From Rhodospirillaceae bacterium (GTDB lineage Bacteria; Pseudomonadota; Alphaproteobacteria; CACIAM-22H2), in the NCBI GenBank assembly GCA_027490975.1, contig JAIXXA010000145.1, positions 5,723 through 69,722 on the forward strand: a DNA stretch of 64,000 bases, read 5' to 3'. Positions within the stretch are counted from its first letter, which is position 1; the number at the start of each line of letters is the position of its first letter. The notes under the pieces are model-generated. The model ran no database searches. It was not told where the DNA came from and saw only the letters and a list, made by a program, of their open reading frames with translations. Of the stretch, positions 8,933 through 60,414 are shown one piece after another. The translations under genes and the position numbers were made by a program.

Positions 8933-10030
8933 CTATTTCGCCAATTGGAGTTTGAGGATCACGGCGGCACCGGTCCGTGTGTCGGCGAGCGACAGGTTGC
9001 CGCCCATGCGAGCTGCCAAGCGTTTGGAGATCGCGAGGCCAAGGCCCGTGCCCTTGTGCGTCGCGACAGCATCGGGATCCTGCGCATAGGCTTCGCCGAA
9101 TTTCGCGCGCATGAAATCCGAAAATCCCGGGCCCTGGTCGCGAACGGTGATGCAGGCGTGATGCGCTGTGCGCGCTGCGTCGAGCAGTACGGGCTTGCCG
9201 TTCGGGCTCATCTTGATTGCGTTCGAAAGCAAATTGAGAACGATCTGCAAAAGGCTGCGTCTTTCGCCGACGGCGCGCAGTCGTTGGTCCGCCGAATGGC
9301 GGACGATTTCCACGCCTGCAGCCGCGGCGATGGGGAGCACAGTCCGCGCCGCTTCGTCGAGCACCTCGTCGATTTCGACGATCTTGTCGCCGGTCGGATC
9401 CGCCCCGCTTTCGGCACGGCTGAGATCGAGCAGATCGTCGATCAGGCTCAGCAGATGGTGCGCCGATCTGCCGATGTCGCCCGCGTAGCTCTTGTAGCGT
9501 GCATTGCCGACGGGCCCGAAAAGCTCCATTGCCATGATATCGGAAAAGCCGATGATGGCGTTGAGCGGTGTGCGCATCTCGTGGCTCATCGAAGCGAAGA
9601 ACAGCGCTTTCGCGCGCTGTGCGGCTTCGGCGCGCTCGAGCGCATTTTGCGTGTCGCGTCGCGCGGTCTGGATCTCGCGCTCGAAACGGCGCCTTTCGCG
9701 GATCGCGAAAAACGAAAAGACGAACTCGTCCGATGGCGTCAGTTTTCCGTGCATCAAGCACGGAACTTCGACGCCCGCCCTGCCGACGAGATTGCACGCG
9801 ATCTCGTCGATCTTGCCGGCCGTCAACAGCACCGGCAGAACTCGGCTTTCGAGAAAAATCTTGCCGCCGACGTCGAAGAGATCGCCGATCGACATTTTTT
9901 CCACGATGTCGGTTTCTGCAAGTTCGACGAGATCGAGGAGCGTGCGGTTCACGCGCCGGATGATGCGGTCGTAGTTGCACACCACGTAGCCGCACGGCGC
10001 TTCGTTGAAATAGTCGAAGAGAGCGCTCAT
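8933..10030 (-). CDS. Cytoplasmic PAS-sensor histidine kinase
   Basis: N-terminal PAS-like fold, intact H-box (SHEMRTPLNAI), N-box (LLSNAIKMS), G1 (DQGPGF), G2 (GTGLGL); start at internal ATG (MSALFDYF). Confidence 0.8.
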   Translation of the reverse strand: MSALFDYFNEAPCGYVVCNYDRIIRRVNRTLLDLVELAETDIVEKMSIGDLFDVGGKIFLESRVLPVLLTAGKIDEIACNLVGRAGVEVPCLMHGKLTPSDEFVFSFFAIRERRRFEREIQTARRDTQNALERAEAAQRAKALFFASMSHEMRTPLNAIIGFSDIMAMELFGPVGNARYKSYAGDIGRSAHHLLSLIDDLLDLSRAESGADPTGDKIVEIDEVLDEAARTVLPIAAAAGVEIVRHSADQRLRAVGERRSLLQIVLNLLSNAIKMSPNGKPVLLDAARTAHHACITVRDQGPGFSDFMRAKFGEAYAQDPDAVATHKGTGLGLAISKRLAARMGGNLSLADTRTGAAVILKLQLAK

Positions 10031-13025: not shown

Positions 13026-13604
13026 ATGGTGATGGCAGTGCGACCCGTGCTGACGAGCTCACGCAACGCGCATATCTACGCTCATTGGCTGTTGGCGCGC
13101 GGGGCCAAAAAAATGCCCTGTCGGCGCGAGTTCCAGCCCGACGTGATCCCTTTCGATCTCAGTCTCGAACTGCCGCAGATTTACATTGTCGAAATCCAAG
13201 GCAACGGCCCGCGTGCGGAATTCAGATTCAGCTTGATTGGCACGCTGCTCGCCGAACGCCTGAAACAGGACGCGACCGGCAAATATCTGTCGCAAATGAA
13301 GCTCGGCGGCTTCGAAGACGAATGGCGACGCAGCCTTACTTTTGCGCTCGAAACCAGGATGCCCGTCGTCTCCGAAAGCCAGATCGTCGCGGCGTCCGGC
13401 ATGCGGGTCGAGATCGAACATCTGCTCGTGCCGCTGTCCGAGAACGACGAGCATGTGGATCGGATTCTCGGTTCGATAGATTTCCTGAAAGCCGCCGACG
13501 TCGAAGCGCTGCGGCGCATACGCGAAATCGACTGGAACGCGATCGCCTCGCATGAACTCGCCAAACGCATCGTCGTCGCGAATTTGCGGATCGACGACGC
13601 GTGA
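13026..13604 (+). CDS. PAS_5-type small protein, paralog 2 (tandem)
   Basis: Colinear paralog of 12341..12904. Confidence 0.6.
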   Translation: MVMAVRPVLTSSRNAHIYAHWLLARGAKKMPCRREFQPDVIPFDLSLELPQIYIVEIQGNGPRAEFRFSLIGTLLAERLKQDATGKYLSQMKLGGFEDEWRRSLTFALETRMPVVSESQIVAASGMRVEIEHLLVPLSENDEHVDRILGSIDFLKAADVEALRRIREIDWNAIASHELAKRIVVANLRIDDA

Positions 13605-13634
13605 GGCTCGGCGACGAAGCTGCGGCTTTAGCCG

Positions 13635-13796
13635 TCAGGACTTATGGTCGCCGCTCTGCGCCTGCAGCTTGGCGAGAATTTTGCGCTGGTTCTCGAGCGT
13701 CTGGTTGATCTTGAAGTACCAGCAGAACGGCTCGCGAAAAACCAGCAAGGCAACGCCGAACATCGCGACGAGCAGGACTATAGTGACGTTGTCCAC
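13635..13796 (-). CDS. Small (53 aa) single-TM protein, GTG start; absent from ORF track
   Basis: GGAGA Shine-Dalgarno 6 nt upstream of GTG; hydrophobic helix (IVLLVAMFGVALLVF) then basic/amphipathic tail; below track size cutoff. Confidence 0.35.
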   Translation of the reverse strand: MDNVTIVLLVAMFGVALLVFREPFCWYFKINQTLENQRKILAKLQAQSGDHKS

Positions 13797-14103
13797 TTAA
13801 ATCTCCATTTTGACTTTGCGACTGCCTCGTAGAATTCGAACGATACTCCAGTTGGGCACTCGATTTGAAGGGGAAGGTTGGCGGCGCATGCGGCGCAACG
13901 CAGAAATCGCCGTTCTCGGATACCGAGTTTCCGTCAACAAAGGCAGTCCGCGACGTTGCTGTCGAGGCGAAGGAAAGGATAGCAATAGGGCTGGGCTGGT
14001 GAACGAAGTGAAGTCGCGCGCCGCGGCCGAAGTCGCCAACCGCGCCAAATCGAGTTTTGCGGCGGCAATGCTTAACTGAAATGCTTGACTGAAAGGATCG
14101 AAA

Positions 14104-14875: not shown

Positions 14876-17800
14876 TCAATCGTCGGCGCTCGAGGCGGTT
14901 TTGGCTTCAGGGGCGGCGCGCAACGTGCGCTCGGGCGGAAACACGAGTGTGGCGACCGCGCCCTCGCCGATCCGGCTCGTAAGCTTGAGTTCGGCCCCGT
15001 GCAGTTTTGCGAGCGTCTGCACGAGCGCAAGGCTGCGGCCGCCGTCGCGCTCCACGTCGCGGCCGCCGCCGCTTTTCGACTTGGCAAGTCCCGCCTGGCG
15101 TCGTTTGAGAACTTCGTCGGCCGAAAAGCCGGGGCCGCCGTCGCGTACCGAAATCTCGATCTGGCCGTCGCGTTCGCGGATATGGATCGACACCAGCGAG
15201 TCGGGCGGCGAAAACCGCACGGCATTGCCCACGAGATTGAGCAGCATCTGGCGCACAAGCCCGGTGTCGCAGCGCAGGCGCGGCAGATCGCGCGCGATCG
15301 CGGCCGACAGACGGTGCCCGCGCCGGCCCGCATCGGCCTCGAGCATGCGCACGACCGAGCGCGCGATTTCGCCGGGATTGCCGTCGCTTTCGCGCAACAG
15401 GCCGGGGCCCGCATCGAGCTGCGAGAGATCGAACATGCGTGCGACGAAATCGAGAAGGTGTTCGGCGCTGTCGTGGATGTCGTGGGCACCGGCAGCGATG
15501 CTCGCCCCCCCTGCCCGCTCGAGCGCTTCGGAAATGCCGAGGATCGTGTCGAGCGGTGCGCGCATCTCGCGGCTCGCGTCGGCAAGGAAGCGCTCGCGGA
15601 ACGCCGCCTCTTCGCGCGCCTTGCTCTCGGCGGCACGCTGGGTGATCTCGGCGAGCTTGCGGTCGGAAATATCGATGTGGCTCACCACCGCCGCGCGCGC
15701 GCCGTCGAGCCAAACGGGCCGGCACGTGCAGCGGTACCAGCGCTGCAGGTCCGGCGAATGGCACGGATATTCGATGCTGAATTCGGCAAGTTCGCCCGCC
15801 AGCACGCGCGACAGCCCGCTTGCCACGTCGTGCGCCTCTTCGGCGCAGTCGCCGGTCGAGCTGCGGCACACTTCGATGTAGTTGGACCCCGCCCCGAAGC
15901 CTTCGCCCACCAGGCCGTTGAGGCGCGCGAAATCGTCCCAGGCTTTGTTGGTGGCGACGATGCGGCCGACGGCGTCGACAAGGGCCAGATGCGCGGGAAC
16001 CCCGTCGAGGGCCGCACTCTGCGCGCCCGCGAGCGCGCGCAACGCGGTTTCCTGCTCCTTGAGCACGCGCTGCGAGCGCACCGCTTCGGTGTTTTCGTAG
16101 AAAAACAGCAGAGCGCCGATCGTGGCCTCGCTGTCGTCGCGATTGGCGACGATGCTGAGCTGGTAGTCGCGGTCGGCGAGCGAAACCTGGCGCTCGAAGG
16201 CGCGGCCGCGCTGCAGCACGTTGTCGATGCGGCCGGCCAGATCGTCGAAGCCCGTCGCCTGGCGGATGCGCGATACGCCGTCGGCAAGATTTTCGACCGT
16301 GAGACCGAACGCTGCCCCCGCCGCCGAGTTGAAGCGCCGCACGCGGCCCACCCGATCCACCACGACAAGCGGAGCCGCGATCGAGTTCTGGATGTTCACG
16401 AGGTCGGTGTTGGCTTCGTGCAGCTCCGAGCTTTTCTGCTCGAGCTCTTCGTTGATCGTCTGCAGCTCCTCGTTGGTCGACTGCAGCTCTTCGTTCGAGG
16501 TTTCGAGTTCCTCGTTGGTGGATTGCAGTTCTTCGTTTGCCGATTGCAGCTCTTCGTTGGCCGACTGCAGCTCTTCGTTGGCGGTCTCGAGCTCCTCGGT
16601 CACCGTCTGCAGATGCTCGCGCGCGGCTGCAAGTTCGTGGCGGATTTCGACCACCACCTGCTCGGCACCCGGCTCGGGTGCTGCAAGATTGGCGGCAAGG
16701 GTCGATGCCGTGTCGAGGAAACTCACCAGATAATACTGGAGATTTTCGCCCGGCACCGGCACGAGGCGCACGGCCACGCGCACGCCCTTGCCGGTTTCGG
16801 GGTCGATGTCTGTCGCCTCGACCGCGATGTTTTCGCGCCGCGCCTTGTGCACGAGCATGCGGATCATCGTTCCGAGTTGTCGCGTGACGAGGCCCGCGAG
16901 CGTGAGATCGGGTTTGCCCGCCGTGATCTGCAGCACGCGCGCGACGTCGCCGTGCGCCTGCAGCAGGGTCAGGTTCTCATCCACGAGCACGGATTTCGGC
17001 GCAAACGCCTCGGCGAGGGCGCGCTCGATCAGCGTCTGGGTGGAGAAGCGCGGCGGGATTTCGACGCGCGGGCGAGCGGTCGGATAGGCCGCCCCGATCT
17101 GCACGAGATTGCGGATGCTGGGTTCGGCCCCGGCCGGCACGTCGCGGCGGCGCGACAATTTGGCCTTGCGGTCGATGGGCTCGAACAGGTCCGAATGCGC
17201 CCCCAGCGTTTCGGATTTGCCGAGCAGCAAGAGGCCGTTCACGCGCAGCGCCCGATGGAACAACGCGATCAGCTGCGCGTTCACTTCGGCCTTGAAATAG
17301 ATCAACAGATTGCGGCACGACACGATGTCGATGCGCAGGAAGGGCGGCTGGCGCAGCAGATTGTGCTTGGCGAAAACCAGGCGCTCGCGCACGTCTTTGG
17401 CGACCTGGTAGGCCTCGCCCGTATCGACGAAGTATTTCTGCACGAGATGCGGATCGACCGTCGTCAGCGCGTCGTACGGGTAGATGCCGCGCCGCCCGAC
17501 CGCGATCGCTTCCTCGTCGATGTCGGTCGCGAAAATCTGGACCTTGCGCGCGGTCTTGGCGCGCTCGAGCGCTTCGACGATCGAGATCGCGATCGAATAG
17601 GCTTCCTCGCCGGTCGAACAGCCTGGGATCCAGACGCGCAACGGTGCCGTTCGGTCGCCGACGGTCAGCAGCGAGTCGAGGGCGCTCGAGAACGCGTCGA
17701 ACACTTCCGGATCGCGGAAGAACGACGTGACCGGAATCATGATCGCCTGCGCCAGCCTGTCGAGTTCGTTGGGCTTGGCGCGCAGCAAGGCAAGGAAGGC

Positions 17801-18565
17801 GGCCGTGTCGGCCATGCGCGACGCGGCCATGCGCGATTCCACGCGCCGCTGCACCGTGCCGGGTTTGTAGTTCTTGAGGTCGATGCCGTGGCGCTCGTTG
17901 AGCAACGAGAAAATCTCGTCGATGTCCGAGAGCTGAACAACCGGCGGGGCCGGCGGGGCGAAGTCGCGCGGCGCATCGGCGATCTTGGGCAACTGCGCGC
18001 CGATCGCGTCGGGCGGCAGGATCACGTCGATCACGCCTGTATCGATCGCCGCCTGCGGCATGCCGTTGTACTTGGCGCTCTCCTCGTTCTGGACGATCGC
18101 GAGGCCGCCCGCCGCCTTGATCGCGCGAATGCCGGCTGCACCGTCGGTGCCGGTCCCCGACAGCACAATCGCGATCGCGCGCGGGCCGTAGGCTTTGGCG
18201 AGGCTCTCGAACAGAACGTTGACTGACGGTTTGGGACCGCGGTCGGCATGCGGTCGCTGCAGCACGATGGCATCGCCGCGCACCGATATGTCGCAATTGG
18301 GAGGCGTGATGTAGATCCGGTTGGCGGCAAGCCGCACCCCGTCGCGCGCCTCTTCAATGGGCACGCGGCTTTCGCGAGAGAGCAAGGCAGCCAGCATGCT
18401 GGCATGCTGTGGGGCAAGATGCTGGGCCACGACCACGGCAAAGCCGGTGTCGCTGGGCAGATTGCCGATGAGGGCGCGCAACGCTTCCAAGCCGCCGGCC
18501 GAGGCCCCGATCGCCACATAGGCGCGCGGCGCGTCACTTTCAGCAGGCTTGGCGTTGTCGCTCAT
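14876..18565 (-). CDS. CheB methylesterase-CheR methyltransferase-coiled coil-PAS-HisKA/HATPase fusion protein (1229 aa), H-box His replaced by Arg
   Basis: N-terminal CheB catalytic domain (GASAGG, GTDG), CheR SAM-MTase domain, about 10 heptad repeats (NEELQS), PAS region, kinase core with SREMRAPL in place of SHELRTPL and weakened G2 box. Confidence 0.85.
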   Translation of the reverse strand: MSDNAKPAESDAPRAYVAIGASAGGLEALRALIGNLPSDTGFAVVVAQHLAPQHASMLAALLSRESRVPIEEARDGVRLAANRIYITPPNCDISVRGDAIVLQRPHADRGPKPSVNVLFESLAKAYGPRAIAIVLSGTGTDGAAGIRAIKAAGGLAIVQNEESAKYNGMPQAAIDTGVIDVILPPDAIGAQLPKIADAPRDFAPPAPPVVQLSDIDEIFSLLNERHGIDLKNYKPGTVQRRVESRMAASRMADTAAFLALLRAKPNELDRLAQAIMIPVTSFFRDPEVFDAFSSALDSLLTVGDRTAPLRVWIPGCSTGEEAYSIAISIVEALERAKTARKVQIFATDIDEEAIAVGRRGIYPYDALTTVDPHLVQKYFVDTGEAYQVAKDVRERLVFAKHNLLRQPPFLRIDIVSCRNLLIYFKAEVNAQLIALFHRALRVNGLLLLGKSETLGAHSDLFEPIDRKAKLSRRRDVPAGAEPSIRNLVQIGAAYPTARPRVEIPPRFSTQTLIERALAEAFAPKSVLVDENLTLLQAHGDVARVLQITAGKPDLTLAGLVTRQLGTMIRMLVHKARRENIAVEATDIDPETGKGVRVAVRLVPVPGENLQYYLVSFLDTASTLAANLAAPEPGAEQVVVEIRHELAAAREHLQTVTEELETANEELQSANEELQSANEELQSTNEELETSNEELQSTNEELQTINEELEQKSSELHEANTDLVNIQNSIAAPLVVVDRVGRVRRFNSAAGAAFGLTVENLADGVSRIRQATGFDDLAGRIDNVLQRGRAFERQVSLADRDYQLSIVANRDDSEATIGALLFFYENTEAVRSQRVLKEQETALRALAGAQSAALDGVPAHLALVDAVGRIVATNKAWDDFARLNGLVGEGFGAGSNYIEVCRSSTGDCAEEAHDVASGLSRVLAGELAEFSIEYPCHSPDLQRWYRCTCRPVWLDGARAAVVSHIDISDRKLAEITQRAAESKAREEAAFRERFLADASREMRAPLDTILGISEALERAGGASIAAGAHDIHDSAEHLLDFVARMFDLSQLDAGPGLLRESDGNPGEIARSVVRMLEADAGRRGHRLSAAIARDLPRLRCDTGLVRQMLLNLVGNAVRFSPPDSLVSIHIRERDGQIEISVRDGGPGFSADEVLKRRQAGLAKSKSGGGRDVERDGGRSLALVQTLAKLHGAELKLTSRIGEGAVATLVFPPERTLRAAPEAKTASSADD
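16435..16615. repeat. Tandem 21-nt coding repeats (about 8-9 units) encoding NEELQ(S/T) heptads
   Basis: Repeated ctgcagctcttcgttgg-like units visible directly in the DNA. Confidence 0.8.
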
Positions 18566-21367: not shown

Positions 21368-22618
21368 ATGGACACAGTCAACCAACGCACCGACGAGGAA
21401 GCGCTGCTTTCCGATCTCGACCGCATCAAGCGGACGGGAAACACTGTGCCGCGCATGGCCGTCGTCATATCGATGCAGCGCCAAGCATGGTTCAATCGGC
21501 GGCGCGAGAATTTCTACGTGATCTTCCATGCGATCCGCGAAATGGTCCAGCGGGCCGAAGGGACCGTGTATTCGCAGGCCAATTTCGACATCGTCTTCGT
21601 TTTCCGCGTCGACAACCCGCAGCAGTTCGAAAACATCGTGACCGAGCTCGACGAGCTCTTGCGCCGCCATTCGGTTGCGACTGGCATGCCGGACGAAAAC
21701 ATCGAAGAAGCCTGCACCTGGTTCAGCTTCGAAACGCAGTTCAACGATTTCTACGACTACGCCAAGCGGGCGCTGGAAGACCAGAAGAGCCAGCAAGAGC
21801 AGCGCCAGCGCGCCGCCCAGCGGGCCGCAGGTGCCGCGCAGCAGGGCGGCATCGGCCCAGTGTTCCAGCCTTTCACGCCTGCAATTCTGAGCACGTTCGA
21901 CGAGCTCATTGCCAAGACCGACGTTAAATCGCTCGTGCGCAACCAACCGATCGCGATAGCGCTCACGGCCAACCAGCTGCGCCCGATTTTCCGCGAGTAC
22001 CATTTTTCGGTCAACGATCTGCGCAACATGATCGTGCCGCGCGTCAATATGCGCGGCCAGCGCGGCCTGTTCCAGATTCTGTCGCGCAGCTTCGACCAGC
22101 GCATGCTGCGCGCGCTTTCCGAGGGGTTCCTCACGAAGGCTGCGGGCAACATCTCGATCAATCTCAATGTCGAGACGATCCTGTCGGACCGGTTCCGCGA
22201 ATTCGACCAGCGCATCCCCAATTTCATTCCCAAGGGCAGCATCATCGTCGAGATTCCGCGCCACGACGTGTTTGCGGATTTCGAGGGCTACAATCGCGCC
22301 CTCGACACGCTGCAGAAATCCGGCTTCCGCACGCTGCTCGACGGTCTCACGCCCGATACGCTGACCTTCTTCCGGCGCGCCGAATTGCGCGCCGATCTCG
22401 TCAAGATGTTCTTCTACAAAGACCATGCTGAAGACTGGCGCATGAAGGGGCTGGCCGCGATGCTGGCCGAGGCGGACATCAACCGCATCATCATGGGGCG
22501 CTGCGAAACGCCCATGGCCTTCGAACTCGGCCAGGCGGTCGGCATTCGCATGTTCCAAGGCTGGCATGTCGACGCTCTTCTGCGCGCGATGACGCCGGCC
22601 ACACCGCCTGGCCGCTGA
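21368..22618 (+). CDS. Protein with unknown N-terminal domain and a degenerate EAL-like C-terminal domain
   Basis: EAL-fold landmarks retained (ISINLNV, Lys, final Q in MFQGW) but DDFGTGYSS replaced by DGLTPDTLT and other metal ligands lost. Confidence 0.5.
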   Translation: MDTVNQRTDEEALLSDLDRIKRTGNTVPRMAVVISMQRQAWFNRRRENFYVIFHAIREMVQRAEGTVYSQANFDIVFVFRVDNPQQFENIVTELDELLRRHSVATGMPDENIEEACTWFSFETQFNDFYDYAKRALEDQKSQQEQRQRAAQRAAGAAQQGGIGPVFQPFTPAILSTFDELIAKTDVKSLVRNQPIAIALTANQLRPIFREYHFSVNDLRNMIVPRVNMRGQRGLFQILSRSFDQRMLRALSEGFLTKAAGNISINLNVETILSDRFREFDQRIPNFIPKGSIIVEIPRHDVFADFEGYNRALDTLQKSGFRTLLDGLTPDTLTFFRRAELRADLVKMFFYKDHAEDWRMKGLAAMLAEADINRIIMGRCETPMAFELGQAVGIRMFQGWHVDALLRAMTPATPPGR

Positions 22619-22632
22619 GCGGCCGAGCGCCG

Positions 22633-23778
22633 ATGCGCCTTCGCGACCTGCCAACGCCCTGCCTCGTGCTCGACCGCGCGCGCCTCAAGCGCAACGTTGC
22701 CCGCATGCGCGACCGTGCCCGCGAACTCGGCGTCGCGCTGCGCCCGCATCTCAAGACCGCGAAGTCGGTCGACGTCGCCTTGCTCGTGCATGGCGGCACG
22801 CCCGGCCCGATCACGGTTTCGACGCTTGCGGAAGCGGCGCATTTCGCGGCCGCGGGTTTCGCCGACATTCTCTACGCCGTGGGCATCGTTCCCGCGAAGC
22901 TCGCGCGCGTTGCAGCAATGATGGCGCAAGCGCCTTCCCTCAAGATCGTCCTCGACGAAATCGACACGGCGCGCGCGGTGGTGGCCCAGGGGCGCGCACT
23001 TGGATGCCGCTTCAACGTCGCGATCGAAATCGACACGGGCGGCGGGCGCGCCGGCATTGCCCCCGACGATCCGGCGCTTGTCGAGATCGGTGCCGTGTTG
23101 AGCGGCGCCGGCATGCTCGCGGGCGTGATGGCGCATGCGGGCCATTCCTACGGCTGTAAGAGCCTCGACGAAATCGTCGAGGTCGCCGAGGCCGAACGCG
23201 TCGGCGTCGTCGCCGCTGCCGAACGGCTGCGCGCGGCCGGCTGTGCGGTCGGGCTTGTCAGCGTCGGTTCGACGCCGACGGCGCTGCATGCGCGCCATCT
23301 CGAAGGTGTGGGCGAAATGCGGCCCGGCAATTTCGTGTTTTTCGACCTGTTCCAGCACGGGCTCGGCATGTGTGCGGCCGAAGACGTCGCGGTGAGCGTG
23401 CTCGCAAGCGTGATCGGCCACCACAAAGGCCGCAACCATGTGCTGCTCGATGCGGGCGCGCTAGCCCTGTCGAAAGACGTCGGGGCGAACGCGGTCACGC
23501 CGCAGATCGGCTACGGCCTTGTGCGTGCGCCGGCCGAGGCCGCGCCACGGGCGGACGTGGCCGTGCTCGACGTGCACCAGGAGCACGGCATCGTCAGTGC
23601 GCGCAAAGGGCTCGACGCGATCGCCCCGCTGCCCTTCGGGGATTTTGCGATCGGCGACCGGCTGCTCGTCTTGCCCAATCACGTGTGCATGACGGCCGCC
23701 ATGCACGATCGCTATTACGTGGTCGAAGGGCTCGACGACACGATCGTGGCTGAATGGCCGCGCATCGCGGGCTGGTAG
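22633..23778 (+). CDS. PLP-dependent DSD1/alanine-racemase-N family enzyme (D-serine dehydratase / D-threonine aldolase-like)
   Basis: PLP-lysine motif (RPHLKTAKS), barrel plus C-terminal beta-domain. Confidence 0.75.
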   Translation: MRLRDLPTPCLVLDRARLKRNVARMRDRARELGVALRPHLKTAKSVDVALLVHGGTPGPITVSTLAEAAHFAAAGFADILYAVGIVPAKLARVAAMMAQAPSLKIVLDEIDTARAVVAQGRALGCRFNVAIEIDTGGGRAGIAPDDPALVEIGAVLSGAGMLAGVMAHAGHSYGCKSLDEIVEVAEAERVGVVAAAERLRAAGCAVGLVSVGSTPTALHARHLEGVGEMRPGNFVFFDLFQHGLGMCAAEDVAVSVLASVIGHHKGRNHVLLDAGALALSKDVGANAVTPQIGYGLVRAPAEAAPRADVAVLDVHQEHGIVSARKGLDAIAPLPFGDFAIGDRLLVLPNHVCMTAAMHDRYYVVEGLDDTIVAEWPRIAGW

Positions 23779-49933: not shown

Positions 49934-50244
49934 GGCGCCGAGCCGTCGCCGTCGCGATCGCGTATTCGTCGGCGCTTTATACGGAACATCCACGTCCGCA
50001 AAGAGACCAGTTCTTTACAGAGAGTTAACGCGGATACCTTTGATCGAATTCGAACATATTCTTCTTGCAATTCGATCCAAGAGCGGAAATAACTTAGCTC
50101 TCTCTGACTGCATTAGAATATCATACACACCCAGAAAGTAGCCGCAATGGTTGGCCAGTCGGTACCCGCCAGGTCGCCGAGCAGTCGCCAGAAAATGGCG
50201 ACGCCTATCCGGCGTGCGCTGGGAACCGCGCGGTACTGCGTTGT

Positions 50245-52380
<2,136 letters not shown>

Positions 52381-52507
52381 CCGCGCGCCGTTCGGCACCT
52401 GCCGCAGCATGCGAATGTATGCTGCACGCGCCGGAAAAGTCTGGCGCGGCGCGCGTCGGGGAGGCTAAGAATGTCTCTTTGCCGAGACATCTCCGAGAGA
52501 GCGGCAC

Positions 52508-53026
52508 GTGGAGTTCGACGACGTCATCGACCATCCGGATCTGCTGGCGCTTTACCGCCATTGGCGGGCGCTTGCCCGCGGCGCCACACCGCCGCGTGCG
52601 GCCTTCGACCCCTTCGCGATGCCACGCTTGATGCCGAATCTGTTTCTGATGGATGTTCTGCCGGACGGCGGCTTCCGGTACCGGCTGGTCGGAACCGCCA
52701 TCGACGCGCATCTGGGCGTTTCGTTCACCGGGCGACGGCTCGACGAAGTGCGCGCGGGCAAAACGCGCGACGACCTTGCCCATCTCTTCGCAACCGTGGC
52801 GAACGAACGCCGCCCCGGCTACTACGCCTCGCGCCTTGCGAGCGAGACGAACGCCCATGCCAGCTACCGACGGCTCGTGCTGCCGCTTGCGGCAGCCGAC
52901 GGCTCGGTGGCCGTGCTGCTCGGCGGCTTCTGCGTCGTATGGGCGAACGAGAGTTTGGATCCGATGCGCATCACGTCGTTCGCCAACGCGCCCGAAATCG
53001 GCGGCACGCTGATGTTTCGGCGGTAG
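52508..53026 (+). CDS. PAS_5-type small protein, paralog 3
   Basis: GTG start; same family as 12341/13026/60733. Confidence 0.55.
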   Translation: MEFDDVIDHPDLLALYRHWRALARGATPPRAAFDPFAMPRLMPNLFLMDVLPDGGFRYRLVGTAIDAHLGVSFTGRRLDEVRAGKTRDDLAHLFATVANERRPGYYASRLASETNAHASYRRLVLPLAAADGSVAVLLGGFCVVWANESLDPMRITSFANAPEIGGTLMFRR

Positions 53027-53091
53027 GCGTCGACGCGTCCGCGCAGCCGAAAACAACAAAATTTTTTCGTATAAATCAGCCGCACATCGAC

Positions 53092-53547
53092 ATGCATCTT
53101 TGGCCGATGGGGGCATTGAATCTGCCGATCTCGAACCACATATACAGCGATGTTCGAGAAAACACCGTCGAGGGTCCCTCTTCCCTCTGGCATACGCGAA
53201 ACGGGAATTGGGTGCCGATGTTCGAAGCTTTTTTTGGCGCGCTCGACGCGTCGCTGCCTTGGCTCATGGCGATCGCCGCAGCGGCGATACTGACCGGAAA
53301 CCATTTTGCGCGCGCCGTTCTCGTCGATTACGGCCTGTCGCTGCGCGCGCGCCAATATGCCGGCCTGGGATGCGCGACGGCCGCTTTGGCGATGTGGTCG
53401 GGCATCACGTCGTGCCATGCGACGACGGGTTTGATCGCCGTTCTGATCGGCTTGAGCGTCAATGCGATCCGCCTCAATCGCTTTGCACATGCGACCGCTT
53501 CGAGCGTGTTTGCGGCCACCCTCGTGCCTGTCGTGGCCGTGTCGTGA
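53092..53547 (+). CDS. Hypothetical membrane protein (3-4 TM)
   Basis: Hydrophobic segments; TATAAAT-like -10 in AT-rich upstream DNA; competing out-of-frame ORF 53100..54317. Confidence 0.35.
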   Translation: MHLWPMGALNLPISNHIYSDVRENTVEGPSSLWHTRNGNWVPMFEAFFGALDASLPWLMAIAAAAILTGNHFARAVLVDYGLSLRARQYAGLGCATAALAMWSGITSCHATTGLIAVLIGLSVNAIRLNRFAHATASSVFAATLVPVVAVS

Positions 53548-54317
53548 ACGGCGCGCGTCTCTTCTTCCCGGCCGCCTGGCCGCTCGATTCCTTCGCCGTG
53601 CTCGATGCGATGCGCCCGCTTTACCAGGCCGGCGCCAAAAAAATTACGCGCTATCCGCTCAAGCATCTTCGCTACTGGTTCATGCGCCACCTGCTCGAGC
53701 AGAAGGCGGCGAAACTGGGGCGTCCGCTCTCGGTCCTCGAAGTGGGCGTCGATCGCGGGCAGATGCTCGCTTTCATGGGCGGCCCGGCGCGCAAAGCCGC
53801 GCTGATCGAACGGTGGGACGCGATCGACGTCGCGCCCGCGCACGAGATGCTGGCGCGCGTCGGTTACGACGACGTTCGCACCATGAACGTCGATGCCGGC
53901 GCCGATCCGCATCTCGAGCGGCGCTACGACGTCATGATCTTTCTGCATCTGCTGGAACATCTGCATGCGCCCGAGCAATGCTTGGCGCGTTTCCAGCAGT
54001 ATCTCCCGCGCGGCGGCACGATGATCGGCGGCAGCCCGACAATGCCGCGCTTGGTTGCCGATGCGGGCTACGAGCAGCGCCTTGCCCGTCGGGCGCGGCC
54101 TTTCGGGCACGTGAGCGTCCTGTCGCCCGAACGCATCGACAGCTTCGCCGAACAGGCCGGCCTGCGCGTGGCTTTCATGTCGGGAGCGTTCTTCATGCGG
54201 CGCCAGGGCAGCCGGCTCGAAAATTCGCGGCTGTGGCTGCGCGCGAACCTGGCTTTTGGCGGACTTTTTCCGTCGCTCGGCAGCGAAATCTATTTTGCGC
54301 TCGAGCGCGCCGAATAG
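53544..54317 (+). CDS. SAM-dependent methyltransferase-like protein
   Basis: LEVGVDRGQ motif-I-like; GTGA overlap with preceding ORF; start uncertain. Confidence 0.5.
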   Translation: MNGARLFFPAAWPLDSFAVLDAMRPLYQAGAKKITRYPLKHLRYWFMRHLLEQKAAKLGRPLSVLEVGVDRGQMLAFMGGPARKAALIERWDAIDVAPAHEMLARVGYDDVRTMNVDAGADPHLERRYDVMIFLHLLEHLHAPEQCLARFQQYLPRGGTMIGGSPTMPRLVADAGYEQRLARRARPFGHVSVLSPERIDSFAEQAGLRVAFMSGAFFMRRQGSRLENSRLWLRANLAFGGLFPSLGSEIYFALERAE

Positions 54318-54330
54318 CGCCGGAACCGGC

Positions 54331-54376
54331 TGCCAAGCCCGCCGGGGCTCGAACCCGGAACCTCGACCTAAAAGAG
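54331..54376 (-). repeat. Diverged copy of tRNA 3'-end segment (T-arm + acceptor, no CCA)
   Basis: agcccgccggggctcgaacccggaacc… aligns with copies at 60451 and 63985. Confidence 0.5.
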
Positions 54377-54394
54377 CAATTGCCGCGGCAACGG

Positions 54395-55300
54395 TCAGGC
54401 CTCGCTGGCGGTGCGATCGAGAAGCTGGTTGAGCCGCTCATTCGCCTCGGTCGTGAGGTTGATGTGCGAGCGTCGCTTGTCGCGCGGATCCTCGTGGCGC
54501 ACGATCAGCCCTGCTTCGACCATGTCCTGCACCCGGCGCAGCGCCGTCGTCTGGCTGATGTTCGCTGACATGCACAAGCCCGACACCGACGTCGCCTTGC
54601 CGCTTCTTTCGAGAAGTGCGAGCTCCAGAAACATGAACCAAGCAGGATCCCCGAACATCTCCTGCGGCAGCAGCTCCGATCGCTGGTTGCGGAAACGGAG
54701 CAGCGATCTGAGGGTATCTATCCGACGTCGCTCGCGGCTCTCCGGCGTCTCCGCGCCGCGGCCCGACTTGGCGAGGCCCGACTTGGCGAGGTCCGACTTG
54801 GCGAGGTCCGGCGCTGCGCTGCCCGGCGTCGGGGCAAGCAGAAGCGCGCGCAGTGCCGAAACCGCCGTATCGTTGGCGTTCGACGATTCGACGGCGCGTC
54901 GGTAGTTCGAAACGGCGGCGGCGACCACGGCAAGCGCCTCGTCGGGCTCGAACGGCTTTTGCAGATACCTTGCGACGCGCAGATCGATGGCCTCGATGGC
55001 GCTCGATATCTCCGGAAACCCCGTCATCAGGATCAGCGCGCACGCAGCGCCGCGATCGCCGCACCGCCGAATCTTCTGCAGAAAACCGATGCCGTCCTGC
55101 AGCGGCATTCGGATGTCGGAAACGACGACGCCGATGCGGTCGTCCTTGAGAAAACGTTCGAGTCCCTGCGAGGCGCTGATTGCGCCGACGGCGTCGAAAC
55201 CGGCAGCGCACAGCGCAAAGACGAGTTCTTCGACGGCCGACTCCTCGTCGTCGACAACGAGGATCTTTACGGCGTCGTCGGATTGCTGGCTTTTCTGCAT
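54395..55300 (-). CDS. Response regulator: REC domain, repeat linker, MarR-like winged-helix
   Basis: REC residues (VVDDEE, VVVSDIRMP, ILMTG, LQKPF); C-terminal wHTH (…CMSANISQTTALRRVQDMVEAGLIVRH…). Confidence 0.75.
   Translation of the reverse strand: MQKSQQSDDAVKILVVDDEESAVEELVFALCAAGFDAVGAISASQGLERFLKDDRIGVVVSDIRMPLQDGIGFLQKIRRCGDRGAACALILMTGFPEISSAIEAIDLRVARYLQKPFEPDEALAVVAAAVSNYRRAVESSNANDTAVSALRALLLAPTPGSAAPDLAKSDLAKSGLAKSGRGAETPESRERRRIDTLRSLLRFRNQRSELLPQEMFGDPAWFMFLELALLERSGKATSVSGLCMSANISQTTALRRVQDMVEAGLIVRHEDPRDKRRSHINLTTEANERLNQLLDRTASEA
54762..54810. repeat. 3 x 15-nt tandem repeat (cccgacttggcgagg) inside the REC-wHTH gene, encoding LAKSD/LAKSG repeats
   Basis: Seen directly in the DNA. 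Confidence 0.7.
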
Positions 55301-55324
55301 GCTTCGAAACTCGTCGAGAGGATG

Positions 55325-57475
55325 CTATGAGGCAAGCGTTGCCGCACCGACGGCGGTGCGTATCGGCAGCGACACCACGAAACAGGCGCCGCGATCGCCA
55401 TTCGAAACTTCGATCGTTCCTTTCAGGCTTTCGACCGTCGCACGGCAGATGGCCAATCCAAGACCGGTGCCGCCGGTGCCGGACCGTGTGGTGAAAAACG
55501 GCTGAAAGACGTTCGCGATGATGTCGGCAGGAATGCCCCCGCCGCTGTCTTCGACGAAAATCCGCACGATCTCGGGCGCCAGCGGATCCGCTTCCATGCG
55601 GATTCCGACGATGTCCGGCGCGCGCGCGCGGGAACCGGGAATCGCCTTTCCTTCCGAGCGGCTTCTCAGAATGGCATCGTAGGCGTTTGCCAGCAGATTC
55701 ACGAAGACCTGTTCGAGTTCGATGCGGCTGCATTCCAGTTCGCACGCGACGTCCGTCTCGACGATCAGATGGATACCGTCGATCCGAAACTGCTCTTCGT
55801 ACATGCCGATGGCCGCGTGTATCGCATCCGACAGCTTGGCAAGCTCGACGACGTTTCTGTCCTGCCGAATGAGCGAACGAAAACGCGTGAGGATGCTTCC
55901 CGTGCGATGGATGTTTTCGACCGCTTTGCCGGCGCGCGCGAGGAGGTCTTCCTTGGGCGCGCCCCGCTCGATAAGCGTGGTCAGGTTCGCAAGTCCGAGC
56001 CGGACCACGTTCAGCGGCTGGACCATCTCGTGGTTCAGCGTGGCCGCCAGCCGCCCGAGCGACGCCAGCTTTGCGGACTGGATGAACATCATCTCCTTGG
56101 CGCGCAATTCGGTGTTGTCGATGCCGACCCCGATGAATCGGACCGTCGAATCCACTGCTGTCTTGCTCTGCGTCCAGCTCCACATGATGTCGCGCCGCAG
56201 GCTCGAGGAATCGTTCGGGGTGAACGAAGACTCGAAACGCACCGGATACTCTTCGGCGGATCGAATTCGGCTGAAATGCCCGACCTGGTCGGCTGCGAGG
56301 CCGCCGGCCGCGACGACCGAGTCGAAGGGCCGCCCGACCAGATCGCCGCGATCCGCGACGCCGAACATCACGGCAAACGCCGAATTGCAGGCCGCAATCT
56401 GGCCGGCGGCGTCGGTCTGCACGAGGGCCGCACCGCAGCCGTCCATGATCCCGATGAGGTCCGCCGATTGCTGTTTCTGCAAGGCGGCAAGCGCATCGCC
56501 CACCCGGGCCCTGTCCTGCGCGCGCAAGAACTTCTCGAACAGAACGGCGAGGCCGATGACGAAGGCGGCCGAAAGGAAACCGATCGTCAGATAGAGACGG
56601 CGCTGCTCGTAGAAGTCGGCAAACACGGCATCGGTGTTCTTGCCGACGAGAACCGTCAGCGAAATGTCGTCCAAGCGTCGGAAGGCGAAGATCCGTTCCA
56701 CCGTGTCCAGGCGACTGACGGCTCGAAACGTCCCTTCCGACGCAACCTTGACCAACGCCTCGACTTCGAACCCGGCGATCGAGCCGCCGATGAACTGCCG
56801 CCCAGGACCGCTCGGCGCGCGCGCGCGGATGATGCCATCCAGCCCGAAAAGATTGACGAGCGTGTTGTTCGGCTCGCCCAGAACTTCGAGGAAGTTCGAA
56901 AAAAGCTGGGGGTCGACCGAAACGACGACCACGCCCAGAAACGGGCCGCCCGCGTAGCGCACCGGTCGGCTGATATTCAGCGACAAGCGCCCGGACGCGC
57001 GCCCGACAAGCGGTTTGCTGATGAACATGCGATCGGCGTCCGTGTCGCGATGCACGCTGAAATGCTCGCGATCCGACAGGTCGACGCCAATGCTCGAGGC
57101 GTTTTCGGTGGTGGCCAGCAGCTTGCCGTCCGCGCCGATCACGGCGATCTGGAACAAGGGCTCGCGCAGCACGCCCCGCCGCGCCGACCATGTCGAGATG
57201 TCGGCCGGCGGGCCGTCGTCGAGCACTTCCTCGCGAAGGAGCAGCAGCACCTGGTCGAAGCGCTGCAGCAGATTCCGGGTGAAAACCTCGAACAGCTGCG
57301 CCTCGTATTTCGCCTGAAGAACGGCGCGGCTTTCGAATTCGCTTTCGGCGCGCTTGGTCAACCCGATCGCGCCAAGCAGGATCGCGGCAGACAGCGACAC
57401 GGCGATCGCCAGCAACGTGAGCAGACGCCCCGATCCATTGGCCAAGGGTGCGAAGGATTTGTGCATTGCGTTCAT
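55325..57475 (-). CDS. Membrane sensor histidine kinase with periplasmic Cache-like domain and PAS
   Basis: TM-periplasmic-TM topology; H-box NHEMVQPL; N, G1, G2 boxes intact. Confidence 0.8.
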   Translation of the reverse strand: MNAMHKSFAPLANGSGRLLTLLAIAVSLSAAILLGAIGLTKRAESEFESRAVLQAKYEAQLFEVFTRNLLQRFDQVLLLLREEVLDDGPPADISTWSARRGVLREPLFQIAVIGADGKLLATTENASSIGVDLSDREHFSVHRDTDADRMFISKPLVGRASGRLSLNISRPVRYAGGPFLGVVVVSVDPQLFSNFLEVLGEPNNTLVNLFGLDGIIRARAPSGPGRQFIGGSIAGFEVEALVKVASEGTFRAVSRLDTVERIFAFRRLDDISLTVLVGKNTDAVFADFYEQRRLYLTIGFLSAAFVIGLAVLFEKFLRAQDRARVGDALAALQKQQSADLIGIMDGCGAALVQTDAAGQIAACNSAFAVMFGVADRGDLVGRPFDSVVAAGGLAADQVGHFSRIRSAEEYPVRFESSFTPNDSSSLRRDIMWSWTQSKTAVDSTVRFIGVGIDNTELRAKEMMFIQSAKLASLGRLAATLNHEMVQPLNVVRLGLANLTTLIERGAPKEDLLARAGKAVENIHRTGSILTRFRSLIRQDRNVVELAKLSDAIHAAIGMYEEQFRIDGIHLIVETDVACELECSRIELEQVFVNLLANAYDAILRSRSEGKAIPGSRARAPDIVGIRMEADPLAPEIVRIFVEDSGGGIPADIIANVFQPFFTTRSGTGGTGLGLAICRATVESLKGTIEVSNGDRGACFVVSLPIRTAVGAATLAS

Positions 57476-57701
57476 GGGGCCCCGGCCATCTCGATGCTGT
57501 TGTCTCTATCCCATGACAATAAAATCAACATCTTCTACCGGGACAGAACGACCCATGTCGATCCCCGTCAAAGTTCAGATTGGAATCCAAACTGAACCAG
57601 ACTGTTCTGTCGGCCGGTTCAAAGTGCGACTAGCGTGCTTAACAAGCGATTAACGGCGTGTCGGCGCGATTTGGCGCAACAAGCGGGATGGGCGTAGTCA
57701 G

Positions 57702-58640
57702 ATGTCGAAACAGATGCTGAAACCAGACACCGACGGCGCAAGCGGCCCAGGCGCAAACGGTGAAGCGCAATTGAAGCTTCGGATGGGCATCCGGCGCCTG
57801 CGCCCTGCGCTTTCGTCGGCCCGCGCCGGCGCACAGGCCAACGCCCGGGCGGCGCCCGCCCCTGTGTCCGACGAGGCGAATGCTGCGCTGATTGCCGCCA
57901 AGAATGCGGCCGAAGCCGCCAACCGAACCAAAGCAGCCCTGCTTGCCAACATGAACCACGAGCTTCGCGCGCCGCTGAACGCGATTCTCGGCTTCTCCGA
58001 AATTCTCGCCGACAACACCGTCGTCGCGCACGGACCGCTTCAGGTCGCCCGGCAAACCGAATTCGCCGGCCATCTGAACAACGCCGGCCACCAGCTTCTC
58101 GACATCGTCGAAAGCATCCTCGACCTTGCGACCATCGAAGACGAAGCGCGCGACATTCGTCCTTCGCCGACTTGCCTGGGCGGCCTCGTCGCGGATGTGG
58201 TGGCGCGGCTGCAGCCGCTCGCGTCGCAATTCGGCGTGCAGATTCGCACCGACCTCGATGCCGATCTGCCGAACTGCGCCATCGACGCCGCCCGCATCCG
58301 CCAGGCGCTTCGCAGCGTCGTCGACAACGCAATCAAGTTCTCGAACAGAAACGGCACGGTGACTGTCGCGGTCTCGCGCTCGAACGCGGCCAATGCCGTC
58401 GTCACCGTTTCGGATACCGGCGTCGGGATCGGCCCGGCGGACATCGCCGACGTCTTCCGCGAGTTTCACCATGGCGATTCGTCGTTCACGCGACGGTACG
58501 ACGGCGCCGGGCTCGGCTTGACCTATGCGAAGAAGTTCGTCGAACAGCACAAGGGCCGCATCACGCTGGCGAGCGAACGGAACGTCGGCACCACCGTGAC
58601 GATCGAATTGCCTTTCGTCGCCGCGACGCAAGAAGGATGA
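57702..58640 (+). CDS. Soluble histidine kinase (HisKA + HATPase)
   Basis: H-box NHELRAPLNAI; N, G1, G2 boxes intact; low-complexity N-terminus. Confidence 0.8.
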   Translation: MSKQMLKPDTDGASGPGANGEAQLKLRMGIRRLRPALSSARAGAQANARAAPAPVSDEANAALIAAKNAAEAANRTKAALLANMNHELRAPLNAILGFSEILADNTVVAHGPLQVARQTEFAGHLNNAGHQLLDIVESILDLATIEDEARDIRPSPTCLGGLVADVVARLQPLASQFGVQIRTDLDADLPNCAIDAARIRQALRSVVDNAIKFSNRNGTVTVAVSRSNAANAVVTVSDTGVGIGPADIADVFREFHHGDSSFTRRYDGAGLGLTYAKKFVEQHKGRITLASERNVGTTVTIELPFVAATQEG

Positions 58641-59071
58641 GCGAAATGGCGACGCCAAGCTGCAGAGTGCTGATCATCGACGACGACGCAAGCTGCGCCG
58701 AAGAATTGTGCCTGCTGCTCTCGGCCGCGGGCTTCCCCACCGAACACGAACTCAGCGCGGCCGACGGCATACGCCATTTTCTGCGCGATCCGAGCGTGCG
58801 GGTCGTCGTTTCGGACATTCGCATGCCGGATTGCGACGGGGTGCGGCTGCTCGACCAGATCCGCAGTTCGGGCGTGCGCGGCCTGGACGCGACCGTGATA
58901 CTGGTGACCGGACAGCCGGATCTCCACACCACGATCGACGCGCTCAATCTTGGCGCGTCTGCGATGCTGATGAAGCCGCTCGATCCGGTCGAGATCGTCA
59001 GCGCGGTTTCCAAGGCCGTCGACATCCAGATGGAGCTGGTGGACTCACTTCAGCCGAAGAAGGTCTCGTGA
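58637..59071 (+). CDS. Single-domain response regulator (CheY-like)
   Basis: ATGA overlap with HK; LIIDDD, VVVSDIRMP, ILVTG, LMKPL. Confidence 0.8.
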   Translation: MSEMATPSCRVLIIDDDASCAEELCLLLSAAGFPTEHELSAADGIRHFLRDPSVRVVVSDIRMPDCDGVRLLDQIRSSGVRGLDATVILVTGQPDLHTTIDALNLGASAMLMKPLDPVEIVSAVSKAVDIQMELVDSLQPKKVS

Positions 59072-59877
59072 TCTTGTCCGCGTCCGGGCCGAGACATGCC
59101 GCGCATTGCGATGCGCCATCCCAACTCGACGGCGGCGGGGACGCGCATGCGGACGTTTCGGCTTCCAAAGCGCGGCTTCTTTCGCGCTTGATCGACGAAT
59201 CGCAGGCGCCTCTGAACGCAATCATCCGGCTCTCGGCGGTCCTTCTGGACAAGGCCGACGCGCCGTCCGCAATCGGCAGTCTTTGCCGGACGGACGATCT
59301 GATCGCGCACATAAACACCGCCGGCAACCAGCTTCTCGACCTTCTCGAGAACGCCGCCGACATTGCGCAGATCGAAGACGGTCGATTGCCGCCCGCATTC
59401 AGGTCGCTGTGCGTAAACGACCTGATCTTGGATGTCGTCGGACGACTGGCGCCGATGTCCGAGCAGTTCGGGATTCCGGTTCAGATGTCGCTCGATCCCG
59501 ATCTGCCCTGCTGCATGATCGACGCGGTGCGCATGCGATGCGCGCTGCGAAGCGTGATCCGCAATGCGATCGAATTCTCGAAGCCCAATGGCGTCGTCGA
59601 CATCTGGACAACCCGGTCTGCCGAACGCGGAATTGTAGTTACCGTCGCCGATCGAGGCATCGGCATTCCCGATAAAGATCTCGAAGAAATCTTTCTGCCG
59701 CTTCATCGCCGTGTTCCTGCCGCCGCGGAATGTCCTCTCGGGCCGGGGAACGGGCTCGTTCTGGCGAAGAGGTACATCGAATACCATCGGGGAAACATCT
59801 GGTTGACGAGCAAGCCGGGGATCGGAACGACGGTCGAAATCGATCTGCCGCATGTCGCGCCGAAGCGCTGGGAGTGA
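59068..59877 (+). CDS. Histidine-kinase-like paralog with H-box His replaced by Asp (pseudo-HK)
   Basis: LIDESQAPLNAI versus MNHELRAPLNAI in the paralog 1.4 kb upstream; ATP-lid N and G1 boxes retained; GTGA overlap. Confidence 0.7.
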   Translation: MILSASGPRHAAHCDAPSQLDGGGDAHADVSASKARLLSRLIDESQAPLNAIIRLSAVLLDKADAPSAIGSLCRTDDLIAHINTAGNQLLDLLENAADIAQIEDGRLPPAFRSLCVNDLILDVVGRLAPMSEQFGIPVQMSLDPDLPCCMIDAVRMRCALRSVIRNAIEFSKPNGVVDIWTTRSAERGIVVTVADRGIGIPDKDLEEIFLPLHRRVPAAAECPLGPGNGLVLAKRYIEYHRGNIWLTSKPGIGTTVEIDLPHVAPKRWE

Positions 59878-59883
59878 CGTGCC

Positions 59884-60414
59884 GTGACCGCCGATTCCTG
59901 CAAGGTGCTTGTCGTCGACGACGATGCGAACTGCGCGGATGAGTTATGTCTTTTGCTTGCCGCAGTCGGCATCCAGACCATGAGCGCTCATTGCGCGGCA
60001 GACGGCATCATCAAATTTCTCGACGATTCGACAATCCGCGTCGTCGTGTCCGACGTTCGGATGCCCGATTGCGACGGCCTCGAACTTCTTGAGATGGTCC
60101 GCTTGTGCCGCGAACGCGGCGGCGGTGCCAGCTTCATTCTCGTCACCGGGCATCCCGAAAAGCTCACGAGCCGCGAGGCGTTGGAGCGCGGCGTGTCGGA
60201 TGTGCTGCTGAAACCGCTCGATCCGGTCCGTGTCGTCGACGCGGTCGCGCGCGCGGTCGCGCTGCAGACGGGGGCGACGCGCCGGACCGAAGACCGGGCT
60301 CGGACTGCGGAGATGGCGCGCGAGTTCCGCAATGCAGGAGCGGTCGACGATGTTCTGCTCGACGACGTCCTGGCCGCATTGAAAAAAATTCTGCGCGACG
60401 ACAAGCGCCACTGA
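59884..60414 (+). CDS. Response regulator (REC with about 50-aa C-terminal extension)
   Basis: GTG start; VLVVDDD, VVVSDVRMP, ILVTG, LLKPL. Confidence 0.75.
   Translation: MTADSCKVLVVDDDANCADELCLLLAAVGIQTMSAHCAADGIIKFLDDSTIRVVVSDVRMPDCDGLELLEMVRLCRERGGGASFILVTGHPEKLTSREALERGVSDVLLKPLDPVRVVDAVARAVALQTGATRRTEDRARTAEMAREFRNAGAVDDVLLDDVLAALKKILRDDKRH

Follow-up and report, generated by a model that had tools for sequence, protein, structure and literature searches.

We analyzed a stretch of 64,000 nucleotides from a Rhodospirillaceae bacterium (contig JAIXXA010000145.1; this whole stretch is further called the window) and studied one open reading frame (ORF), located on the minus strand at 14876..18565. 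This ORF starts with ATG, is intact and encodes a 1229-amino-acid (aa) CheB/CheR-fusion sensor with a degenerate kinase core. The sequence suggests that the C-terminal module of this protein, composed of the dimerization and histidine phosphotransfer (DHp) domain and the catalytic and ATP-binding (CA) domain, is a conserved histidine pseudokinase, non-catalytic and kept by its clade. We estimate the probability of this reading at approximately 0.72. Judging from its motifs, the module most likely cannot autophosphorylate, carry out phosphotransfer or act as a HisKA-type phosphatase.

Domain organization of the fusion protein

The order of the domains is CheB, CheR, cryptic PAS, heptad coiled coil, PAS_10, PAS_4, HisKA and HATPase_c. 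An identical protein is encoded by the NCBI contig JAIXVC010000027.1, which belongs to a metagenome-assembled genome (MAG). The features of the gene, all on the minus strand, are as follows.

17990..18517, minus strand: CheB_methylest, residues 17-192 (Pfam, 3.7e-59)
17168..17926, minus strand: CheR_N, residues 214-264, and CheR, a SAM-dependent (S-adenosylmethionine-dependent) methyltransferase, residues 279-466 (Pfam)
16715..17041, minus strand: cryptic PAS-like domain, residues ~509-617 (predicted with AlphaFold2 and Foldseek)
16439..16597, minus strand: seven tandem heptads, residues 657-709, within a coiled coil of residues ~630-730
16097..16396, minus strand: PAS_10, residues 724-823 (Pfam)
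15656..16009, minus strand: PAS_4, residues 853-970 (Pfam)
15407..15598, minus strand: degenerate DHp (HisKA), residues 990-1053 (HisKA 30-34 bits, cut-off 26.9)
15548..15574, minus strand: H box S-R-E-M-R-A-P-L-D, residues 998-1006
14930..15262, minus strand: CA (HATPase_c), residues 1102-1212 (Pfam, 1.7e-15)
15206..15244, minus strand: N box LLNLVGNAVRFSP, residues 1108-1120
15128..15142, minus strand: G1 box D-G-G-P-G, residues 1142-1146, retained
15023..15124, minus strand: ATP-lid region, residues 1148-1181
15023-15043, minus strand: G2 box GGRSLAL, residues 1175-1181
14879..14887, minus strand: C-terminal tail -A-D-D-COOH, residues 1227-1229

Long antisense ORFs that cover the fusion gene (e.g. 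14999..18226, plus strand) were dismissed as high-GC artefacts.

The phospho-acceptor histidine is replaced by arginine in the whole clade

The bases 15571..15569 of the minus strand are CGC and encode Arg999, at the position of the phospho-acceptor His. In alignments with PDB sequences Arg999 shared a column with the phospho-acceptor His of GacS (7Z8N) and ShkA (6QRJ), and also with Tyr550 of DivL (4Q20). A first-pass annotation of this DNA had reported an Arg in place of the H-box His at codon 15569-15571 and a G2 box of GGRSLAL instead of GxGLGL. Both observations held: the first by direct reading of the CGC codon and by the alignment of Arg999 with the His of solved kinases, the second at residues 1175-1181.

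A database search returned seven further full-length orthologues, which were 97, 84, 84, 67, 67, 66 and 65 % identical to the fusion protein. The motifs SR(E/D)MRAPLD and xGR(S/N)LA(L/M) were present in all eight distinct proteins of the clade, down to 65 % identity. The canonical kinase-bearing relatives (n = 96, at most 42 % full-length identity) had SHELRTPLN and GxGLGL instead, with His in 96/96; the nearest of them were 36-42 % identical across 98 % of the length.

We further compared the codon in orthologous loci from NCBI, ENA, JGI and Logan assemblies (97-65 % protein identity). It was CGC in 12/12 loci, and the ORF was intact (1224-1229 aa) in all of them. Thus CAC, which the same annotation had proposed to look for as a sign of an assembly error, occurred in none. 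Around this codon the loci showed synonymous differences (GCG/GCC/GTC/ATC, AGC/AGT, CGC/CGA and CTC/CTG among others), and because the neighboring codons differ in this way we regard the 12 loci as independent sequences.

We scanned 1.84 billion cluster representatives exhaustively with HMMER, and the degenerate module fell into a single cluster (345 bits to its own representative). The next match reached 179 bits at 31 % identity. Among the 149 next-best representatives, His was found at the acceptor column in at least 203 of 207 kinase domains, and one domain had Ser. As judged from these sequences, Arg at the acceptor column is far beyond chance. A word-based search for the degenerate module elsewhere, performed with the C-terminal 251 aa, returned only a fragment of the same gene, and the 45 other matches were all canonical.

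All members of the clade apparently come from uncultured freshwater MAGs. The isolate codes of these MAGs resemble those of freshwater-lake samples. Near-identical orthologues were found in MAGs that carry the labels Telmatospirillum sp., Tagaea sp. and Asaia bogorensis, the last of which is implausible. These labels conflict with each other, and the public taxonomy labels for this apparently freshwater lineage are unreliable.

Other catalytic motifs are degenerate, and no other acceptor site was found

Besides Arg999, ten positions were fixed in the clade and differed from the consensus of the relatives (>=80 %), including L1001M, T1003A, N1006D, K1117R and L1177R. Within the H box, the position H+4 was Ala1003 (15557-15559) in 8/8 clade proteins, compared with Thr in 88 % of the relatives, and Asp1006 stood where the canonical relatives have Asn; an acidic residue (E or D) was kept at H+1. 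The N-box Lys, conserved in 100 % of the 96 relatives, was replaced in the clade by Arg1117 (15215-15217). The clade retained Asn1110 and Asn1114 of the N box and D1142-x-G-x-G1146 of the G1 box. The F box (pF-eQ) was changed into a basic stretch, LKRRQ, at residues 1153-1157 (LKRR/K in the clade). The G2 glycines 1178 and 1180 were replaced with S/N and A, respectively, and the adjacent Arg1177 was specific to the clade.

We also looked for the signs of alternative histidine kinase families. The C-terminal 269 aa, scanned at E<=10, matched only HisKA, HATPase_c and HATPase_c_2. HisKA_2, HWE and HisKA_3 gave no match at this threshold, and no [ED]xxHRxxN motif was present in the C-terminal region. 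Two histidines on the second DHp helix, H1031 and H1036, were invariant in the clade, and they were also common in canonical relatives with a normal His. An alternative phospho-His site, which the first-pass annotation had wanted to see excluded, was therefore not found: there was no HisKA_2/HWE match, and the DHp histidines are shared with canonical relatives. A third histidine, H1084 (15314..15316, minus strand), was invariant in the clade. It belongs to the motif RRGHRLSA, located where the first CA strand begins, and takes the place of Val/Ile in canonical relatives.

The tail of the protein was conserved as well. All 8/8 clade proteins ended with -A-D-D, though the preceding 10-15 residues varied, and this tail was absent from canonical relatives. 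It may serve for docking or tethering.

The kinase module is under purifying selection and its fold is predicted to be retained

We calculated dN/dS (the ratio of nonsynonymous to synonymous substitution rates) with the Nei-Gojobori method against the 97, 84 and 65 % orthologues. The values, given in this order and with dS near saturation in the last comparison, were 0.018, 0.068 and 0.30 for DHp; 0.072, 0.105 and 0.26 for CA; 0.022, 0.056 and 0.27 for CheB; and 0.031, 0.112 and 0.25 for CheR. DHp and CA were thus in the range of CheB and CheR. The ATP-lid segment (residues 1148-1176) evolved fastest (0.27, 0.30 and 0.74).

Further, we compared identities within the clade with those of 119 canonical family pairs at equal overall divergence. 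The ATP lid (0.40 in the clade vs 0.72 ± 0.14 in canonical pairs) and DHp (0.62 vs 0.78 ± 0.07) were less conserved in the clade, while the CA body (0.71 vs 0.59 ± 0.07) and PAS_4 (0.70 vs 0.55 ± 0.09) were more conserved.

The AlphaFold2 model of residues 956-1229 had a mean pLDDT (predicted local distance difference test score) of 83 and consisted of a long helical hairpin and an alpha/beta sandwich. The CA body was above 90, and the ATP lid was poorly defined (pLDDT 55-68). Foldseek with the DHp and CA model returned ZraS, GacS, DivL, HK853, ShkA and RetS (E 1e-16 to 1e-12). The DHp hairpin and the Bergerat-fold CA are predicted to be retained.

The pattern of selection is unlike that of a decaying remnant and suggests that a new constraint, unrelated to catalysis, maintains the fold. 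The low dN/dS of DHp and CA and the conserved CA body are consistent with the proposal, made before this analysis, of a kinase-dead output retained as a scaffold.

Comparison with known systems

DivL of Caulobacter crescentus (PDB 4Q20) resembles the fusion protein in having multiple PAS domains and a HisKA-type DHp-CA with a conserved non-His residue at the acceptor site. It was the second-best PDB sequence match (1.6e-18) and was among the top structural matches. DivL is inactive both as a kinase and as a phosphatase; its DHp-CA is a sensor of DivK~P, and a contact of Tyr550 with the DivK~P phosphoryl group has been proposed (PMC4211667). It keeps the H, N, G1, F and G2 motifs yet binds no nucleotide (PMC4211667). 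The two proteins differ at the acceptor site (Tyr in DivL, Arg in the fusion) and in the F box and G2, which the fusion has lost. DivL is ~29 % identical over DHp-CA and has neither CheB/CheR nor the heptad array. We rejected the possibility that the fusion protein is a DivL orthologue on the basis of Arg in place of Tyr, the identity limited to DHp-CA and the presence of CheB/CheR.

In PsmA of Streptomyces both the H-box His and the D/ExxT/N motif are missing, and the protein shows no autokinase activity (PMC12963549). Similarly to the fusion, it has lost both the His and the phosphatase motif, is conserved within one lineage and contains PAS domains (PMC12963549). The residue at the His position varies in PsmA (E, D, Q, V, Y), whereas Arg is invariant in the fusion (PMC12963549). 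PsmA belongs to the polarisome of actinomycetes and carries a receiver domain; its architecture is unlike that of the fusion protein.

RetS of Pseudomonas aeruginosa (PDB 6DK7/6DK8/7N0E) is a case of a kinase fold which signals without phosphotransfer of its own and pairs with the DHp of another kinase. It was among the sequence and structural matches of the fusion kinase module. RetS keeps its own His. It is a membrane hybrid kinase with GacS as a partner, in which it differs from the fusion protein. The fusion is not a member of the DivL, PsmA or RetS protein families; its proposed likeness to them is functional, in that a kinase fold would take part in signalling with no phosphotransfer.

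The canonical CheB/CheR fusion sensor kinases have the same architecture and a length of ~1230 aa. Their KEGG-style name is 'two-component system, chemotaxis family, CheB/CheR fusion protein'. All those examined have SHELRTPLN, the N-box Lys, the F box, GxGLGL and mostly 4 heptads, whereas the clade is degenerate in these motifs and has 6-7 heptads.

CheB, CheR and the heptad coiled coil

By sequence, CheB and CheR appear catalytically intact, as the first-pass annotation had stated. The CheB triad S22 (18500-18502), H49 (18419-18421) and D141 (18143-18145) corresponded to S164/H190/D286 of 1A2O; the domain was also aligned to 1CHD. The CheR motifs FFRD282, STGEE317, ATDID346 and CRNxxIYF (IYF422) were intact in the alignment to 5FTW/1BC5. 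Both the triad and the CheR motifs were conserved across the family. Canonical chemotaxis CheB has an N-terminal receiver domain that controls its methylesterase; in the fusion protein no Response_reg match was found, and the methylesterase domain begins at residue 17.

Residues 460-660 were modelled by AlphaFold2 with a pLDDT of 81.5, and Foldseek matched this region to heme-PAS and LOV domains (E ~1e-4); Pfam did not detect it. In the model, the C-terminal helix of this cryptic PAS runs into the coiled coil. Since residues ~509-617 are predicted to be PAS-like, the fusion protein would have three PAS domains in total, and the heptad helix would lie between two of them.

The coiled coil contains seven tandem heptads of the form E-E-L-(Q/E)-[ST]-[AST]-N, which come from a 21-bp tandem repeat at 16443-16612. 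Six heptads matched EExx[ASTG][ASTG] in strict register, compared with 1.5 scattered matches expected by shuffling. This motif corresponds to the downstream half of the consensus for chemoreceptor methylation, which is quoted in PMC6829392. The full 10-residue consensus, [ASTG][ASTG]xx[EQ][EQ]xx[ASTG][ASTG], was not matched in the heptad array. With Asn at heptad position a and Leu at d, the second Glu falls at position c, the usual methylation position.

The heptads were present in 121/121 family members examined, with any output domain, mostly in 4 copies and in 6-7 copies in the clade. The output domains of the family are a kinase, a hybrid kinase, GGDEF-EAL or none. Because family members exist with GGDEF-EAL or with no output, the core composed of CheB, CheR, coiled coil and PAS does not require a kinase. 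We infer that the fused CheR and CheB may act on their own helix, because the heptads are universal in the family and CheB is receiver-less. The likeliest substrate of CheB and CheR would then be the EExx[AS][ST] heptad array of the protein itself.

Interpretation of the degenerate kinase module

We propose that a single CAC to CGC transition removed the His on the stem of a small clade of freshwater alphaproteobacteria. The same stem would also have seen the loss of the F box, of the G2 glycines and of the Thr of the phosphatase motif, as well as the change of the N-box Lys to Arg. The module would have been kept under purifying selection as a folded, probably dimeric, helical hairpin with an alpha/beta sandwich. 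Its role is most likely non-catalytic: the module would dimerize and couple conformationally with the heptad helix and the PAS domains, or dock a partner such as a receiver domain or another kinase, or do both, following the precedents of DivL and RetS. By analogy with DivL, the guanidinium group of Arg999 would be chemically well suited to contacting the phosphoryl group of a receiver. The invariance of Arg in the clade, in contrast to the variable residue of PsmA, is suggestive in this respect.

Several observations weigh against the pseudokinase reading. The clade holds approximately four separated lineages, so the invariant Arg is only modest evidence for selection on Arg itself. Nucleotide binding is possible, given that the clade has kept the N-box Asn residues and the DxGxG of G1. 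The most distant comparison of substitution rates is affected by the near-saturated dS mentioned above. No response-regulator gene adjoined the fusion gene in the window or in the 97 % or 84 % loci. In the literature searched we found no functional study of the CheB/CheR fusion family or of the NEELQS heptad.

A more elaborate version of the pseudokinase reading may be considered, in which the dead core has been rebuilt as a reader of phosphoryl groups or nucleotides that sets CheR/CheB in a kinase-independent self-methylation memory device. Arg999, Arg1117 and Arg1177 would together line the former phosphotransfer and gamma-phosphate site. The flow of the signal would be reversed, as in DivL, and the former output would serve as an input to CheR and the receiver-less CheB. 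The target would be the protein's own seven heptads, with a possible link to the EAL-like protein encoded nearby (described below). We regard this combination, taken as a whole, as distinctly unlikely.

Among the alternatives to a pseudokinase, we considered that CA still binds a nucleotide (ATP, ADP or another adenine ligand) and either works as a ligand switch or trans-phosphorylates the His of another kinase in a heterodimer. In favor of this, the clade does not vary at Asn1110, Asn1114 or Asp1142-Gly-Gly-Pro-Gly1146, its CA body is better conserved than that of canonical pairs, and the clade-specific Arg999, Arg1117 and Arg1177 would be at phosphate-facing positions, as placed from general kinase structures. 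However, the clade has lost the G2 glycines and the F box, and no segment is less constrained than the lid. Mutations of G2 in EnvZ and NtrB abolish kinase activity. In addition, the retained motifs do not predict nucleotide binding, because DivL keeps all the boxes without binding a nucleotide (PMC4211667). We therefore consider a nucleotide-binding CA unlikely. The module could also be a kinase which uses H1031, H1036 or the clade-specific H1084 as an acceptor, all three being invariant in the clade and H1084 replacing the canonical Val/Ile. Since H1031 and H1036 occur also in canonical relatives, H1084 lies in CA, no other kinase family or motif was matched, and the degenerate G2 box and lid speak against catalysis, this is highly improbable.

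A phosphatase-only homologue, which would dephosphorylate a response regulator, was an option raised for the dead kinase by the first-pass annotation. Some HisKA kinases keep phosphatase activity without the His, and the acidic residue at H+1 is kept here. Nevertheless, the clade has lost the His and has Ala at H+4 in all members, where 88 % of relatives have Thr. Thr or Asn at H+4 is a part of the HisKA E/DxxT/N phosphatase motif (PMC12963549), and its replacement by Ala across the clade makes phosphatase activity very unlikely; we disfavor this option. Finally, CGC is one transition from CAC and the window comes from a metagenome-type assembly, so an error of sequencing or assembly might account for the Arg codon, or the kinase end might be a decaying pseudogene. 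We rejected this explanation, to which we assign a negligible chance, on the grounds of CGC in 12 independent loci, intact ORFs and dN/dS far below 1.

Gene neighborhood

Assignment of a cognate response regulator by neighborhood was rejected, as no adjacent gene of this kind was found in the window or in the 97/84 % loci. In the 65 % locus a response-regulator gene was located ~3 kb downstream, beside another kinase. Two canonical relatives examined also had no adjoining response regulator and are likewise orphans. Within the window, receiver domains were found only at 54-60 kb.

The only neighbors kept across the 97, 84 and 65 % loci were the following two genes.

~21368..22618, plus strand: degenerate EAL-like protein, 416 aa (EAL 34 bits, partial)
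~22633..23778, plus strand: D-serine-dehydratase-like gene

The EAL-like protein was 92 and 73 % identical across loci and was more conserved than the fusion protein. It had no significant match among PDB sequences. In the 84 % and 65 % loci its gene is divergent from the fusion gene, with a gap of 161-226 bp. In the window, aldo-keto reductase and FAD-monooxygenase-like (flavin adenine dinucleotide) genes are inserted between the fusion gene and the EAL-like/dehydratase pair.

The 97 % locus (L006, 14464..16317) contained a 617-aa dCache-HisKA-HATPase_c kinase between an Asp/Glu-racemase-like gene and a 53-aa ORF. This kinase was missing from the window (~13600..14100) and from locus L001. 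The GC content of the window falls to 0.58 at 12-14 kb.

Other kinases in the window

A second His-less kinase, which had been reported for the same window, was indeed present at ~59068..59877 (plus strand), with Asp (GAC, 59194-59196) at the His position. Its H box was L-I-D-E-S-Q-A-P-L-N and its G2 box GPGNGLVL, and Pfam detected only HATPase_c. The GTG at 59068, a tentative start of this gene, overlaps with the end of the gene for the receiver. Another candidate for the second His-less kinase, the 365-aa kinase at 8933..10030 (minus strand), was rejected, as it had SMSHEMRTPLN and GTGLGL and is canonical.

The His-less kinase lies in a dense two-component cluster (50098..60411), which includes the following genes. 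The histidine kinase, the receiver, the His-less histidine kinase and the second receiver apparently form one operon.

50098..52377, plus strand: membrane PAS kinase
54398..55324, minus strand: response regulator adjoining the dCache kinase
55325..57475, minus strand: dCache kinase
57702..58640: canonical paralogue histidine kinase, NMNHELRAPLN
~58.65-59.07 kb: single receiver
59878..60411: second receiver, after the His-less histidine kinase

Significance

Histidine pseudokinases are an established kind of protein, of which only a few have been studied, DivL, PsmA and RetS-like proteins among them. The fusion protein is a further, clade-conserved case in an uncharacterized architecture. It offers a cleanly dated natural experiment, in which one clade, within a family whose other examined members are all canonical, would have given up the His together with the phosphatase Thr, the F box and G2 and kept the fold. 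Matched active and dead homologues are thus available for asking what a kinase scaffold does after catalysis is lost. The conserved half-consensus heptads are an independent lead and suggest that receptor-style adaptation may be built into a soluble sensor.

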